DNA of 47,296 nucleotides from a virus (Duplodnaviria; Heunggongvirae; Uroviricota; Caudoviricetes). Location: IMG/VR virus record IMGVR_UViG_2879765931_000007; one strand, written 5' to 3'. The first letter of the stretch is position 1. Each line of letters opens with the position of its first letter. Of this stretch, positions 12,001 to 39,000 are shown in pieces. The position numbers are program-made.

Positions 12001-15000
12001 AACTCCAGGCATTACACATTGCTCGGGATGAAGAACTACCAGCTGTTACTGCCCTGGCTGTTTCCCACAAAACCAGCCTGCTCGATCCGCTGGAAATTCG
12101 CGATCTCCACAAACTGGTGCGTGATACTGACAGAGTTTTCCCTAATCCAGGCAATTCAAGCCTGGGGCTGATGACTGCTTTTTTCGAAGCATACATGGAC
12201 GCAGACTACACCGATCGCGGTCTGCTGACAAAAGAGTGGATGAAAGGAAATCGTGTTTCACGCATCACGCGCACGGCTTCCGGCGCTAATGCTGGCGGCG
12301 GGAACCTCACCGATCGCGGCGAAGGTTTCGTTCACGATCTGACGTCACTGGCGCGCGACGTAGCCACTGGCGTACTGGCTCGTTCAATGGACGTGGACAT
12401 TTATAACCTTCATCCGGCACACGCTAAACGTGTCGAGGAAATTATCGCTGAAAATAAACCGCCCTTTTCTGTTTTCCGCGACAAATTCATCACCATGCCT
12501 GGCGGGATGGATTATTCCCGCGCCATCGTGGTTGCGTCAGTGAAAGAAGCACCGATTGGTATCGAGGTCATCCCCGCTCACGTCACTGAATATCTGAACA
12601 AGGTACTGACTGAAACCGATCATGCCAACCCTGATCCGGAAATCGTGGATATTGCCTGCGGTCGCTCCTCTGCCCCGATGCCGCAACGTGTAACAGAAGA
12701 AGGAAAACAGGATGATGAAGAAAAAACGCAGCCATCTGGCGCAATGGCAGATGAACAGGCAACGGCTGAAACAATGGAACCGGATGCAACTGAACATCAT
12801 CAGAACACGCAGCCGCTGGATGCTCAGTCACAGGTAAATTCTGTTGATGAGAAATATCAGGAACTACGGGCAGAACTCCATGAAGCCCGGAAAAACATTC
12901 CGCCCAAAAATCCTGTCGATGCAGACAAATTACTGGCTGCCTTGAGGTAGCCTGTGAGGTGTACTGGCAATAGCGGACACTACCATTTGTTCTTTTTTTA
13001 AGCAGCCATCTGATGATATTTTTCCCTGAAGGCTGCCGGGGAGATATTCCCCAGACGAGAGTGACGACGCTGACGATTGTAGAAAATCTCAATGTATTCC
13101 CGTATTACTGAGGTGGCTTCATCCCGGTTATTAAAACGATAGTGGCTCAGGCTCTCATTTTTCAGCGTTCCCCAGAAGCTTTCCATCGGAGCGTTGTCGT
13201 AACAGTTACCTTTACGCGACATTGATGTTTTCAGACCAGACTGCTCCTGTATGACCCGGTAATCGTATGCGCAGTACTGTGAACCTCGATCAGAGTGGTG
13301 GATTAGCCCGGCAGGTGGGCGCTGGCTCCTGAGCGCCATAAACAGGGCTTTACCTGTCAGCTCTTTTGTCATGCGCTCTCCCATGGCGTAGCCGACAATT
13401 TCACACGTATAAACATCTTTGATGCCAGCGAGGTACAACCATCCCTCCTGTGTGGCAACATACGTCAGGTCCGCCACCCAGACCTGATTTGGTGCTGTAG
13501 GAGCGAACGTCTGGTTCAGCAGATTTGGCGCAACTGGCAGATTGTGGTTCGGGTTCGTAGTCGCTCTGAACTTGCGTTTCTGCTTACAGCGTAGCCTCAG
13601 CTCCTTACGAAGACGTGCCAGTCGGTCACGACCAACGATGATGCCATTCTCTGCCAGCTCCGTCTGGAGCCGCCGGGTTCCATATGTTTCGCGAGTGCGG
13701 ATATGTGCCACCTTAATCTCCAGTTTTAGCCGCTCATCACTTTGTTTTCTGTCTGAGGGTTCATGCTGTACCCAGTTGTAATAACCGCTCCTGGATACAC
13801 CAAATACCTGACACATCGCTTCAATGGGAAATTGTTGTCGCCATTGTTCGATTAACGCGTATTTTTCAGCGACTCCTGTGCAAAATACGCTGTTGCTTTT
13901 TTTAATATATCTCGCTCAAGGCGAGCTTCATTTAACGCCTTACGCAGTTGCAGAATTTCAGATTCCAGTTCAGCCACCGTGCGGGAACCAGGAGTACCGA
14001 GCCCTTTTCTGGCGGCGGTAACCCGTTGTCCTAAAGTGCCTTCAGGAAGAGATAATCGGGAAGCGCCTTCACTGATCGAAAGTTGATTTTCAAGAACCGT
14101 TCTGACAGCTTCGGCTTTGAACTATTTAGAGTAACGTTGGGTTTTTCTGCTCATTATTAGCTCCTTCTGATGCCATTCTATTTCAGGAAGGAGTGTCCGT
14201 TAAACTCAGGCTACCTCAGAGCGCTTATCCGATTTTTGATCGTATTGAAGAAATGGCATGGGCTCGTCACTACCAGCAGATCGTTCGTGAAGAAAAAGAA
14301 ACGGAACTGGCGGACGACCTGGAAAAAGGTCTGCCTCAGCACCTGTTTGAATCGCTCTGCATCGACCATTTGCAACGCCACGGTGCCAATAAACAGGCAA
14401 TCAGCCACGCATTTGATGATGATGTTGAGTTTCAGGAGCGCATGGCAGAACACATCCGGTACATGGCTGTGAAGTGGCACACTGAATTTGGCCACCTGAA
14501 CAGAGGTGATATGCTCACCTCAGAACAACACAGGTGCTCCAATGAAAAAAGAAATTTTAGCGCAGAGTTTAAACGCGAATCCGCTCAACTGGTTGTTGAC
14601 CAGAAATACACGGTGGCAGATGCCGCCAAAGCTATGGATGTTGGCCTTTCCACAATGACAAGATGGGTCAAACAACTGCGTGATGAGCGTCAGGGCAAAA
14701 CACCAAAAGCCTCCCCCATTACCCCGGAACAAATTGAAATCCGTGAGCTCAGGAAAAAGCTACAACGCATTGAAATGGAGAATGAAATATTAAAAAAGGC
14801 TACCGCGCTCTTGATGTCAGACTCCCTGAACAGTTCTCGATAATCGGGAAACTCAGAGCGCATTATCCTGTGGTCACACTCTGCCATGTGTTCGGGGTTC
14901 ATCGCAGCAGCTACAGATACTGGAAAAACCGTCCTGAAAAACCAGACGGCAGACGGGCTGTATTACGCAGTCAGGTACTTGAGCTACATGGCATCAGCCA

Positions 15001-36000: not shown

Positions 36001-39000
36001 TCTGCCGTCTGGTTTTTCAGGACGGTTTTTCCAGTATCTGTAGCTGCTGCGATGAACCCCGAACACATGGCAGAGTGTGACCACAGGATAATGCGCTCTG
36101 AGTTTCCCGATTATCGAGAACTGTTCAGGGAGTCTGACATCAAGAGCGCGGTAGCCTTTTTTAATATTTCATTCTCCATTTCAATGCGTTGTAGCTTTTT
36201 CCTGAGCTCACGGATTTCAATTTGTTCCGGGGTAATGGGGGAGGCTTTTGGTGTTTTGCCCTGACGCTCATCACGCAGTTGTTTGACCCATCTTGTCATT
36301 GTGGAAAGGCCAACATCCATAGCTTTGGCGGCATCTGCCACCGTGTATTTCTGGTCAACAACCAGTTGAGCGGATTCGCATTTAAACTCTGCGCTAAAAT
36401 TTCTTTTTTTCATTGGAGCACCTGTGTTGTTCTGAGGTGAGCATATCACCTCTGTTCAGGTGGCCAAATTCAGTGTGCCACTTCACGGAAACACCACTCA
36501 GGGTGTGCGTCATTCAGCAATTCAGCCATTTTACGCTTAGTCATCCCCCGCCCTTCATACCGTTGCCGGAGGACACTAATCAATCCAGGATGCTCTGCCA
36601 GCACCTCACTTATGACTCTATCAATACATAACGCCTCTGCATCAGTACAATGCGCCAGCCAGGTCTTTTGCTTGCCATTGATCATCTCTCGCAAAAACGC
36701 TTCCAGCTCAGGTTTCTCTATTCCCGCTTTTTTCATCCTGCGCAGGGCTTCATTGACGGCTGTTTTCGTCAATTTTTTGGATGCCAGCAACTGGTTAAAC
36801 ATATTTCCCGTCTTACCGCCGCCAATATACGACCAGCGCCCCCACATGCGCAGTTTTCCCTGAATCCAGACACTTTCCAGCGTGGTGAGACGAAGGTGTT
36901 CCCCGCTTTTGCCTGTATTTGTTGGGTAAATCATAAATAACCTTCCTTTCTCCAGATTTCTTGTGTGCGAAAAACACCTTCTGCATGCATCAGGCGTAAT
37001 TCTTCTTTGGTGTAATCGCTGGTTTTTACCCGCCCGTCGATTAAATCGTGGCATGAGCTACAGGCAATCGCTGCCTGCATATCGTGTGGTTTTGTCGCTG
37101 TTCCGCACGTCCCCGCCAGCCTGTAATGCGCCAGCACAGAAGTTTCGGGATTGTGATTGCAGTAGCCAGGAATTCTGACGGTGCACATCTGCCCCCGCGC
37201 CGCTTTACGTAAATCCACCATTACGCAAACTCCAGTAACTGCGCGGCCACATTTTCGACTTCCTCCGGAGAGGAAAATTTACGGAACAGGATCCAGTTCC
37301 ACAGCACATTCAGTACAGATTTATAAACCTGCTGAAACTCGGTTTCGTCCATGTTCGCAAATGCGATAGATTTTGCCCTGCGCCCACGACTACCATCAGG
37401 ATAAATATGCTCGGTGTAAAATCCGGCCTGAATGGTTACCCACTCGCGGAAAGCGTCAAACGACTTTAGCAATGCCGTATCCCGGGTTCTGCATGTCGCA
37501 ACTGTATTAAGGTATTGCTCTGCGGCATCACTCAGGGCTGGAGTGTGTTCCCGACCTACTGATTCGCACAGGTAATCAACGAAGCCTGATACCAGTTTTC
37601 GTTCGCGAGGCGTGATCGCCCCACCGACCGGAGTCCAGTAATCAAATCCCAGTTGCAGGAGTTTGAAAAAACGCTTGTGGAATGCGTAGTTACGCACACG
37701 CTTAAAGTCTGCGTGTATCCACTCACCTATTTTGATTTGATGCAAAAAATCGCAACTCTCCGGCGTCGCCGGGAGAAGTAATCCGGAAGAGGTTTGTTTG
37801 ACCAGTTGTATATGCGCCATCGTAGTTCTCCGCTGGCGCAGTAGAATGGGTGTTCAGCCCGTTATGTAGTATACCAGAATTAATGCCAATACTAACAGGG
37901 TAATGCTGCCAACTTACTGATTTAGTGTATGATGGTGATTTTAAGGTGCTTGCGTGGCTTCCATTTCCATCAGATGTCCTTCCTGCTCCGCTACTGAAGG
38001 CGTGGTGCGTAACGGCAAAAGCACTGCCGGACATCAGCGCTATCTCTGCTCTCATTGCCGTAAAACATGGCAACTACAGTTCACTTACACCGCCTCTCAG
38101 CCCGGTACGCACCAGAAAATCATTGATATGGCCATGAATGGCGTCGGATGTCGCGCCAGCGCACGCATTATGGGCGTTGGCCTCAACACGGTTTTACGTC
38201 ACTTAAAAAACTCAGGCCGCAGTCGGTAACCTCGCGCATACAACCGGGCAGTGATGTGATTGTCTGCGCTGAAATGGACGAACATTGGGGCTACGTCGGT
38301 GCTAAATCACGTCAGCGCTGGCTGTTTTACGCGTATGACAGGATACGGAGGACGGTTGTGCCGCACGTCTTCGGTGAACGCACTCTGGCCACACTGGAGC
38401 GTCTTCTGAGCCTGCTGTCGGCCTTTGAGGTCGTGGTATGGATGACGGATGGCTGGCCGCTGTATGAATCACGCCTGAAGGGAAAGCTGCACGTTATCAG
38501 CAAGCGTTACACTCAGCGCATTGAGCGACATAATCTGAATCTGAGACAACATCTGGCAAGGCTGGTACGGAAGTCACTGTCGTTCTCAAAATCGGTGGAG
38601 CTGCATGACAAGGTCATCGGGCATTATCTGAACATAAAACACTATCAGTAAGTTGGAGTCATTACCTACTAACAGGATGCTCTGACTCGCAATTCATCCA
38701 GCAGTTTATCATTTCCCATAATGTCACTTACCCTCATCGGTAAAAAAATTGCCTTTCGACCATTACGATACATTATTGATTTTGGGGTTTCAGGGAAGTA
38801 ATCCATTTCGACTATAACTGACAGGTCATCACGACGTATGACTGCGTATTTGCTACTAAATAGTTTCTTTATTTTTTCCACGATGCCCCCAGGTTTATAA
38901 GTACAAACGGTTATATCCACATAGAGACAAAAATATTAATCTGATAAATATTTATTTCACGCCGTATATTTGATTGTTTAATGTGCAAGTACAATGACTT

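Follow-up and report, generated by a model that had tools for sequence, protein, structure and literature searches.

What does the loss of a single A just behind the transposase start codon mean for two of the three IS911 copies in this Shigella prophage region: a sequencing error, a transposase with a shifted start, or an element that has lost its ordinary start of translation? The window is the whole stretch of DNA that was analyzed (47,296 nucleotides, IMG/VR record IMGVR_UViG_2879765931_000007), and all three copies in it are full-length. Copy a (14470-15717, plus strand, 1248 bp) lies inside the prophage gene gam, copy b (31045-32292, plus strand, 1248 bp) lies inside a phage integrase gene, and copy c (35237-36485, minus strand, 1249 bp) truncates a phage Q-like gene. 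There is also a solo left-end remnant of IS911, 58 nt long (7313-7370, minus strand), which ends before the A run. Alignment of the three copies upheld both their coordinates and the alleles that the earlier note had assigned to them. Directly after the canonical orfA ATG (14542-14544 in copy a), copies a and b have six A residues (A6; 14545-14550 and 31120-31125, plus strand) in the context CCAATG-AAAAAA-G. Copy c has seven (A7; T7 at 36404-36410 on the plus strand) in the context CCAATG-AAAAAAA-G, and its OrfA starts with MKKRNF. The run length aside, a single substitution separates copy c from copy a, a C to T change (36380, OrfA R12C) that is private to c. The single difference between copies a and b is a synonymous T/C at 15613 (T in a) and 32188 (C in b). 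The A run makes up codons 2-4 of orfA; the tract is short and is polymorphic between A6 and A7 at orthologous sites.

The membership of these copies in IS911 is clear from their ends, target duplications and reading frames. Both ends of a, b and c match the left and right terminal inverted repeats (IRL and IRR), which are imperfect, about 36 bp long and bounded by TG...CA; the published IRR sequence was used for the comparison (PMC2909936). Each copy is flanked by its own 3-bp direct target site duplication (TSD): CTG for copy a (14467-14469 and 15718-15720), ATC for copy b (31042-31044 and 32293-32295) and CGG for copy c. In all of them orfA and orfB are arranged in the 0 and -1 frames with an A AAA AAG motif, HTH and DDE (rve) domains are encoded, and the conceptual OrfAB is intact. 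The Pfam entries on record for these genes are PF01527, PF00665 and PF13683. Canonical Shigella IS911 (IS3 family, IS3 group) has the same 36-bp imperfect repeats (TGAAGTGG...), 3-bp TSD and 0/-1 frames at A AAA AAG, with HTH_Tnp_1 and rve domains, and E. coli copies annotated as IS911 by PGAP are 98.8-99.0% identical among the matches listed. The canonical orfA start, ATG AAA AAA AGA (MKKR), is found in c but not in a or b, which defines an allele rather than family membership. Copies a and b differ from canonical IS911 in having A6 instead of A7, and their sole in-frame AUG lies 31 nt upstream, where it adjoins IRL.

The contraction uncouples the canonical AUG from orfA and orfAB and leaves the ends, the A AAA AAG site and orfB intact. 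In copy a, the canonical ATG (14542) opens an out-of-frame ORF that dead-ends after 38 codons (14542-14658, plus strand). Downstream, the programmed -1 frameshift motif at the orfA-orfB join (A AAA AAG, 14792-14798, plus strand) is preserved, as is the orfB frame with its rve/DDE domain (14870-15709, plus strand), the protein product of which is identical in copies a, b and c. An upstream ATG at IS nucleotides 42-44 (ATG42; 14511-14513) is in frame with orfA and opens an extended frame of 110 amino acids (14511-14843, plus strand), 10 more than the 100-aa OrfA of copy c. Translation of the copies therefore bears out the out-of-frame canonical ATG, the in-frame upstream ATG and the 10-aa extension that had been reported from the sequence, but not the placement of ATG42 inside the left inverted repeat: it is 6 bp internal to IRL, which is 36 bp as defined in PMC2909936. 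The AAAAAAG at the orfA start was also weighed as a programmed site and rejected, as the A AAA AAG register of the A6 allele falls in the third frame, immediately behind a TGA. S. flexneri K-227 and 4343-70 both have an NCBI entry identical to the 110-aa extended OrfA; an exact-protein look-up of the copy c OrfA returned no match. The A6 variant is already in RefSeq. WP_236745547.1 (399 aa, S. flexneri), found on 15 contigs, is exactly the OrfAB that copies a and b would give on translation from ATG42, and PGAP names it 'IS3-like element IS911 family transposase [Shigella flexneri]'. It is an annotation product only, and our search for a functional study of this protein found none.

A7 is the reference state of IS911, so that the possibility of an A6 reference, raised by the earlier note, does not apply. 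A7 was found in 55 of 56 species-representative matches, with A6 in the remaining one, and in 115 of 120 metagenome contigs, with A6 in five. Neither A5 nor A8 occurred among these 176 matches, and the only change seen is contraction. An exact 85-mer carrying A6 was found in 7 records of E. coli complete genomes versus 4369 with the region, and in 17 plasmids of PLSDB, among the matches listed, versus 2248 with the region. Several A6 calls come from older drafts (2011-2012 accession series), in which sequence inside a repeated IS may be less reliable. Taken together, these counts make A6 a recurrent minority allele; it is commoner in S. flexneri. At many orthologous IS911 sites one strain has A6 and another A7, and these sites are also polymorphic for the T/C marker; A6 occurs on both T and C backgrounds at many sites. 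Most of the A6 sites that allow comparison are old insertions for which other strains have A7. The allele is heritable at fixed sites: one shared site is A6 in CP026765.1, UGYS01000001.1 and UDQH01000102.1, and one truncated IS911 copy is A6 in at least seven ETEC plasmids, the other copies of which are A7. SPAdes-style metagenome contigs also carry A6 on diverged, partly decayed relatives of IS911, and in one such diverged lineage ATA replaces ATG42.

The histories of the three insertions were compared in related genomes. The gam::IS911 insertion of copy a recurs, with identical flanks and the same CTG duplication, in eight other Shigella genomes, all of which have A7. Since these orthologous insertions are A7, copy a was A7 when it entered gam, and the contraction to A6 followed in this lineage alone. 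The site of copy b is empty in five related genomes, where it was found through a tail-fibre fragment, and copy a is accordingly the older of the two. The insertion of b shortens the integrase from 534 to 484 aa, which explains why a look-up of the integrase beside copy b matched only this genome. The site of copy c is empty in three related genomes, and its Q::IS911 junction is also found in run ERR832466. The T/C marker divides Shigella IS911 into two common sublineages, with a split of 13:11 among the A7 copies sampled. Copy a is T-type like all of its orthologues; copy b is C-type and is identical to A6 copies at two sites (L006 and L009) in the S. flexneri drafts AKMZ01 and AFHD01.

We consider it likely that A6 is a real one-base contraction of A7 that arose by homopolymer slippage, was perhaps spread by gene conversion, and leaves a weakened or non-autonomous copy. 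Under this explanation, slippage from A7 to A6 arises repeatedly, and gene conversion can carry the product from one IS copy to another. The allele now sits, in this lineage, on an old copy that was inserted as A7 (a) and on a recent insertion (b) of a different sublineage. The proposed weakening rests on the position of the element's resident promoter, pIRL, which is weak. In IS2, an extended -10 beginning with TGAT lies just inside IRL (PMC3299598). By analogy with that PIRL and from the sequence, TGATATGCT (14507-14515, plus strand; IS nucleotides 38-46) is a candidate extended -10 of pIRL that overlaps ATG42, with TTGGCC (14488-14493, plus strand) as a candidate -35 at a 16-bp spacer; a consensus promoter scan of 14300-14700 with a stricter consensus gave no site at threshold. 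If pIRL is placed correctly, resident transcripts would start downstream of ATG42 and yield little or no OrfA and OrfAB. Residual OrfA and OrfAB may be owed to rare -1 slips on the A run; such a slip would restore MKKRNF exactly. Activity of the IS911 transposase is some 200-fold higher in cis (PMC5009743). ATG42 could yield the 10-aa-extended OrfA and OrfAB only on transcripts that start further upstream, either from host read-through or from the junction promoter of an excised circle. Copy a is in the same orientation as gam and in frame with it. An 8-nt match to the Shine-Dalgarno sequence, GAGGTGAT (14503-14510, plus strand), directly abuts ATG42, with a 4-nt spacer after its GAGG. It is kept in 54 of the 56 species-representative matches, and it may serve ATG42 in translation. 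The match is a strong one. It is because of ATG42 that gene callers and PGAP report a seemingly intact protein of 110 or 399 aa.

Some observations count against this explanation. The presence of A6 on two backgrounds in one genome needs two events, which could be two slippages or one slippage plus conversion or transposition. In addition, the recent insertion b carries A6, and A6 copies may therefore transpose; this could be reconciled with a weakened copy if b was mobilized in trans or was changed after insertion.

The alternative that the A6 allele is a functional, start-shifted variant, which uses ATG42 to make an extended OrfA and OrfAB and spreads autonomously by itself, copy b included, is in our estimation doubtful. 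The arrangement upstream of orfA would permit it, as GAGGTGAT precedes ATG42 and no stop codon lies between ATG42 and orfA in that frame; PGAP treats the 399-aa product as an intact transposase. OrfAB[1-149] with an N-terminal TrxA fusion still binds IRR (PMC2909936). Copy b, being lineage-specific with a clean TSD and an empty site in five relatives, is what a self-spreading A6 element would leave, and the combination of A6 with the C marker is found at several other TSD-flanked sites in S. flexneri. However, most comparable A6 sites are A7 elsewhere, and the contraction thus usually follows an insertion and does not arrive with it. ATG42 also overlaps the likely resident -10, and in other IS911 lineages A6 goes with decay; one lineage has ATA at the place of ATG42.

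An assembly error at a and b, in which both copies are truly A7 and the homopolymer was under-called twice, is unlikely. The error that typically remains in long-read and pyrosequencing assemblies is the single-base homopolymer deletion. The A7 state of the copy a insertion in all eight other genomes fits such an error, as do the 2011-2012 drafts among the A6 calls, the alternation of A6 and A7 at the same sites between assemblies, and the A7 state of the pINV records of S. flexneri 301 and M90T. The assembly itself argues otherwise. The identical context in copy c was called A7, the A run is the only indel relative to related genomes over 7.2 kb, six other runs of at least 6 nt, including two T7 runs, agree with relatives, and five IS600 copies are gapless and near-identical. 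Beyond this assembly, genomes and plasmids that were sequenced independently share A6 by inheritance at fixed sites, and SPAdes-style metagenome contigs carry it as well.

More speculatively still, the A7 tract may act as a slippage toggle. In the A6 state the transposase frame would be cut off from the AUG of the resident promoter and joined to ATG42, which only transcripts from outside the element or from the circle-junction promoter would include; A6 copies would be defective in initiating transposition, able to complete integration and dependent on host read-through. We regard this as improbable. If true, it could explain the persistence of A6 on intact copies and its presence on the fresh copy b. 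Set against a phase-variable (contingency) homopolymer switch, the tract lies in the 5' coding region, at codons 2-4, and varies between A6 and A7 at orthologous sites, yet it is short and only its contraction was seen. Apart from the toggle, a parallel is offered by homopolymer frameshift alleles with low-level compensatory slippage, such as the 'savior indels' in the G7 run of the herpesvirus thymidine kinase gene (PMC5009743). There, likewise, a one-base indel affects a run of seven nucleotides close to the gene start, and by sequence logic a -1 slip on the A6 run would exactly restore MKKRNF. The IS911 case differs in that slippage on A6 is hypothetical, as is selection for it, and the run has no recognized stimulator.

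The earlier note took the shared A6 run to mark a and b as sister copies. Such a descent, by one contraction of A7 to A6 in copy a and then a local transposition from a to b, or the reverse, is highly improbable: although both copies are A6, one base apart, 16.6 kb from each other, in the same orientation and with b recent, that one base is the T/C sublineage marker, so neither is a simple daughter of the other and sisterhood needs an extra coincident mutation or conversion, while a resembles its T-type A7 orthologues and b matches the A6 copies of AKMZ01 and AFHD01. Sister copies should agree at the diagnostic sites and share a derived state that their ancestor lacked; a and b disagree at the marker, and the ancestral state of a at its own site was A7. 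The occurrence of A6 on both backgrounds and at many sites, and the differences between orthologues, make it an unreliable marker of common descent.

Copies a and b are, as had been noted, direct repeats around some 15 kb that includes sitABCD. The interval (15718-31044, 15,327 bp) contains decayed pieces of a lambdoid prophage, IS1, IS600, another IS3-family element and sitABCD (20423-23872), the last confirmed by Pfam (ZnuA, ABC_tran and two ABC-3). sitABCD is a virulence-associated iron/manganese transporter. Near-identical direct copies that bracket 15.3 kb with sitABCD resemble the ends of an IS-flanked composite transposon or an IS-mediated deletion unit. We rejected an IS911-sitABCD-IS911 transposon, however, since a and b have individual TSDs and the sequences at their outer ends, CTG and ATC, disagree; the segment was thus not brought in by the a/b pair, and the unit was neither assembled nor moved by transposition of the pair. 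A look-up of SitC returned E. coli contexts only, and sitABCD is found beside lambdoid tail-fibre genes in ordinary E. coli as well.

The A6 state of these IS911 copies is an ordinary case of little import beyond annotation hygiene. It illustrates how an IS transposase can pass as intact with gene callers after a one-base change in a homopolymer, owing to an upstream start that is there by chance, and how poorly a shared homopolymer state marks the ancestry of IS copies, because orthologous copies differ in run length between strains. As for the sitABCD region, which those IS copies did not deliver, it lies between the 1.25-kb direct repeats a and b, and homologous recombination across this pair could lead to its deletion or amplification. 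Should expression and activity of the extended protein be borne out, they would add a little to the picture of IS911 regulation.

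The window holds three full copies of the insertion sequence IS911: copy a (14470-15717, + strand) and copy b (31045-32292, + strand), each of 1248 bp, and copy c (35237-36485, − strand) of 1249 bp. Direct reading of the start of orfA bore out the earlier note: copies a and b read CCAATG AAAAAA G, with six A directly after the canonical ATG (A6), and copy c reads CCAATG AAAAAAA G, with the canonical seven (A7), and encodes the 100-aa MKKRNF... protein. The run aside, copies a and c differ solely by a C-to-T change at 36380 that is private to c, and copies a and b solely by a synonymous T/C difference at 15613/32188 (AGT or AGC, both Ser, in orfB). 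The change at 36380, in the sole A7 copy of the window, converts Arg12 of OrfA/OrfAB to Cys (R12C); the exact R12C OrfA was found in a single contig in the protein look-up. In the A6 copies the canonical ATG (14542 in copy a) is out of frame with orfA, as had been noted, and opens a frame of 38 codons. The orfA frame is open upstream to an ATG at IS nt 42-44 (ATG42; 14511-14513), from which a 110-aa protein would be made and, conceptually, an OrfAB of 399 aa. The earlier note was thus right about an in-frame ATG and a 10-aa extension, but not in placing it inside the inverted repeat: since the published repeats are 36 bp (PMC2909936), ATG42 lies 6 bp internal to the inner edge of the left repeat (IRL). 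The A AAA AAG frameshift site (14792-14798), orfB and the ends of the A6 copies are intact. In their ends, target duplications (TSD), orfA/orfB architecture and domains all three copies are ordinary members of IS911, 98.8-99.0% identical to annotated E. coli IS911 among the matches listed.

The reference state of the run is A7. A gapped pattern accepting A5 to A8 was run on species-representative genomes, with matches spanning Escherichia, Shigella, Salmonella arizonae, Brenneria, Lonsdalea, Kluyvera and others, and on metagenome contigs. The run was A7 in 55 of 56 matches in the former (one A6) and in 115 of 120 in the latter (five A6), which disposes of the concern that reference IS911 might itself carry A6; neither A5 nor A8 was seen in either set. 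Among complete E. coli genomes, 4369 records have the region and 7 have the exact A6 85-mer; these seven are related ETEC plasmids. PLSDB has it in at least 17 plasmids among the matches listed, versus 2248 with the region; their hosts are S. boydii, S. dysenteriae, S. flexneri, E. albertii and ETEC, and S. flexneri strains 301 and M90T have A7 in their pINV records.

Indirect but consistent evidence makes an assembly error an unlikely source of A6 in this window: copy c, with identical sequence context in the same assembly, was called A7, the run is the only indel in 7.2 kb compared with six to eight close relatives, the six other homopolymers of at least 6 nt in that 7.2 kb, two T7 runs included, all agree with the relatives, and five IS600 copies align without gaps. 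Across assemblies produced independently, A6 is inherited at fixed sites. One such site is A6 in CP026765.1, UGYS01000001.1 and UDQH01000102.1, and the same truncated IS911 copy is A6 in at least seven ETEC plasmid records whose other copies are A7. SPAdes-style metagenome contigs also contain A6.

We examined the insertion history of each copy through its flanks. Copy a lies in a prophage gam gene (TSD CTG), and eight other genomes have this insertion too, with identical flanks. Because all eight orthologues are A7, copy a was inserted as A7 and turned A6 only in this lineage; at 15613 it has T, as they all do. Copy b (TSD ATC) interrupts a phage integrase, which is 484 aa long here and 534 aa in relatives. 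Five related genomes have an empty site there, among them UAUS01000007.1, which does have the gam insertion, so copy b is recent. Copy c truncates a Q-like antiterminator gene (TSD CGG) at a site that is empty in three relatives, and its junction was otherwise seen only in an ERR832466 contig. Two other genomes carry an A7 IS911 in the same orientation with its right junction about 30 bp from that of copy b (32293-32330) and different left flanks; the area could be a preferred local target or mark a point of rearrangement.

The orfB T/C marker divides Shigella IS911 into two common sublineages, with 13 T-type and 11 C-type among the A7 copies sampled. Copy a is A6/T, copy c is A7/T, and copy b is A6/C, identical to A6 copies in the S. 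flexneri draft assemblies AKMZ01 and AFHD01. As A6 stands on two backgrounds within the window, copy b is not a simple daughter of copy a; this, with the A7 state of all orthologues of a, overturns the earlier view of a and b as sister copies. When all fetched copies were grouped by flank, at least seven orthologous sites varied between strains in being A6 or A7; older draft assemblies, in which IS interiors may be less reliable, are the source of some A6 calls. This polymorphism suggests that slippage recurs, that copies undergo gene conversion with one another, or both. Some of these sites also differ at T/C, which suggests gene conversion among IS911 copies. Copies a and b could have arisen by two slippages, by slippage plus a short conversion tract, or through an unseen A6/C donor of b with conversion of a.

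The contraction takes the canonical AUG out of the orfA frame, and its consequence would depend on where transcripts begin. IS nt 38-46 read TGATATGCT, with TTGGCC 16 bp upstream inside the IRL. We infer that TGATATGCT is a candidate extended -10 of a resident promoter, pIRL. Its position mirrors that of the weak resident promoter of IS2, an extended -10 starting TGAT just inside the IRL (PMC3299598). If this is pIRL, transcripts would begin near nt 53 and exclude ATG42; from a resident A6 mRNA one would then expect the 38-aa peptide alone, apart from a rare product of -1 slippage on AUG AAA AAA G, a slip that would restore MKKRNF exactly. Before ATG42 stands GAGGTGAT, which matches the Shine-Dalgarno consensus over 8 nt, and this start might be used on transcripts begun further upstream. 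One source could be the circle-junction promoter, reconstructed as TTGACC in the right repeat (IRR), a 17-bp spacer over a 3-bp junction and TGG-CACACT in the IRL, whose transcripts would start near nt 21. Another could be the host: in copy a, given A6, the gam frame continues in frame into orfA (ORF 14193-14843, + strand, 216 codons), and read-through could give a Gam'-OrfA fusion or, after frameshifting, Gam'-OrfAB. In A7 elements ATG42 opens an upstream ORF of 16 codons (IS nt 42-92; e.g. 36394-36444, − strand), overlapping the start of orfA. Of the 56 species-representative matches, 54 keep both ATG42 and its Shine-Dalgarno sequence, which overlap the putative -10.

Under an alternative, less likely reading, ATG42 would make A6 copies depend on such read-through or on the junction promoter. 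The 10-aa extension is unlikely to abolish DNA binding, since a TrxA fusion to OrfAB[1-149] still binds IRR, less avidly (PMC2909936). In other IS911 lineages A6 occurs alongside damaged ends or an altered slippery site, and in one ATA replaces ATG42; these companions fit decay and not a designed alternative start. The activity of IS911 transposase is about 200-fold higher in cis than in trans (PMC5009743), so A7 copies should mobilise A6 elements inefficiently. On balance, an A6 copy is probably weakened or non-autonomous, and gene callers take it for intact.

RefSeq already lists the allele, without remark, as a protein under the NCBI name S. flexneri. The 110-aa OrfA is recorded for S. flexneri K-227 and 4343-70, in 30 contigs (canonical 100-aa OrfA, 662), and the 399-aa OrfAB is WP_236745547.1, in 15 contigs (exact canonical 389-aa OrfAB, 24). 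A literature search aimed at the promoters and cis preference of IS911 found no paper on A6. The concept that comes closest is that of a frameshift allele in a homopolymer, possibly compensated by slippage at a low level (PMC5009743). A6 is a routine homopolymer frameshift allele in a well-known IS.

The window matches a 4.49-Mb chromosome, CP026871.1 (assembly GCA_002950195.1), whose loci reproduce copies a and b with identical flanks, and its nearest relatives in the collections searched are Shigella genomes. Lambdoid prophage remnants form a mosaic here that is dense in IS elements, with six IS600 copies or parts, three IS1 and another IS3-family element present twice. Besides the three full copies of IS911 there is a solo left end of 58 nt (7313-7370, − strand; TGAAGTGG...CAGAACAAC) with unrelated DNA next to it; this is what is left of a fourth copy, truncated ahead of the A run. 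About 220 bp right of copy b, a prophage remnant carries a cluster of four tRNA genes (Gly-TCC, Thr-TGT, Arg-TCT and Met-CAT; 32512-32822, − strand). The IS600 copy at 12955-14218 lacks the 100-aa orfA ORF present in other full IS600 copies and has substitutions at 13912, 14025 and 14124 private to this genome relative to the same insertion in seven relatives, reflecting either a conversion tract or decay.

Copies a and b are, as previously described, direct repeats flanking about 15 kb: the interval is 15,327 bp and contains sitABCD at 20423-23872. The T run upstream of sitA (20158-20164) is T6 here; of ten fetched sit loci from E. coli, nine have T7 and the alignment of the tenth starts past the run. 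The comparison covers E. coli, as the fetched Shigella relatives end short of this position, and the T6 is either a real difference or a miscall. An IS911-sitABCD-IS911 composite transposon is ruled out by the matching TSDs that each copy has of its own, by the unlike outer flanks and by the greater age of a than b. Since sitABCD lies beside lambdoid tail-fibre genes in ordinary E. coli, it is prophage cargo at its usual place. No a-b recombinants, by deletion or amplification, were present among the fetched loci. The two direct repeats are 99.9% identical and could mediate deletion or amplification of the sitABCD segment.
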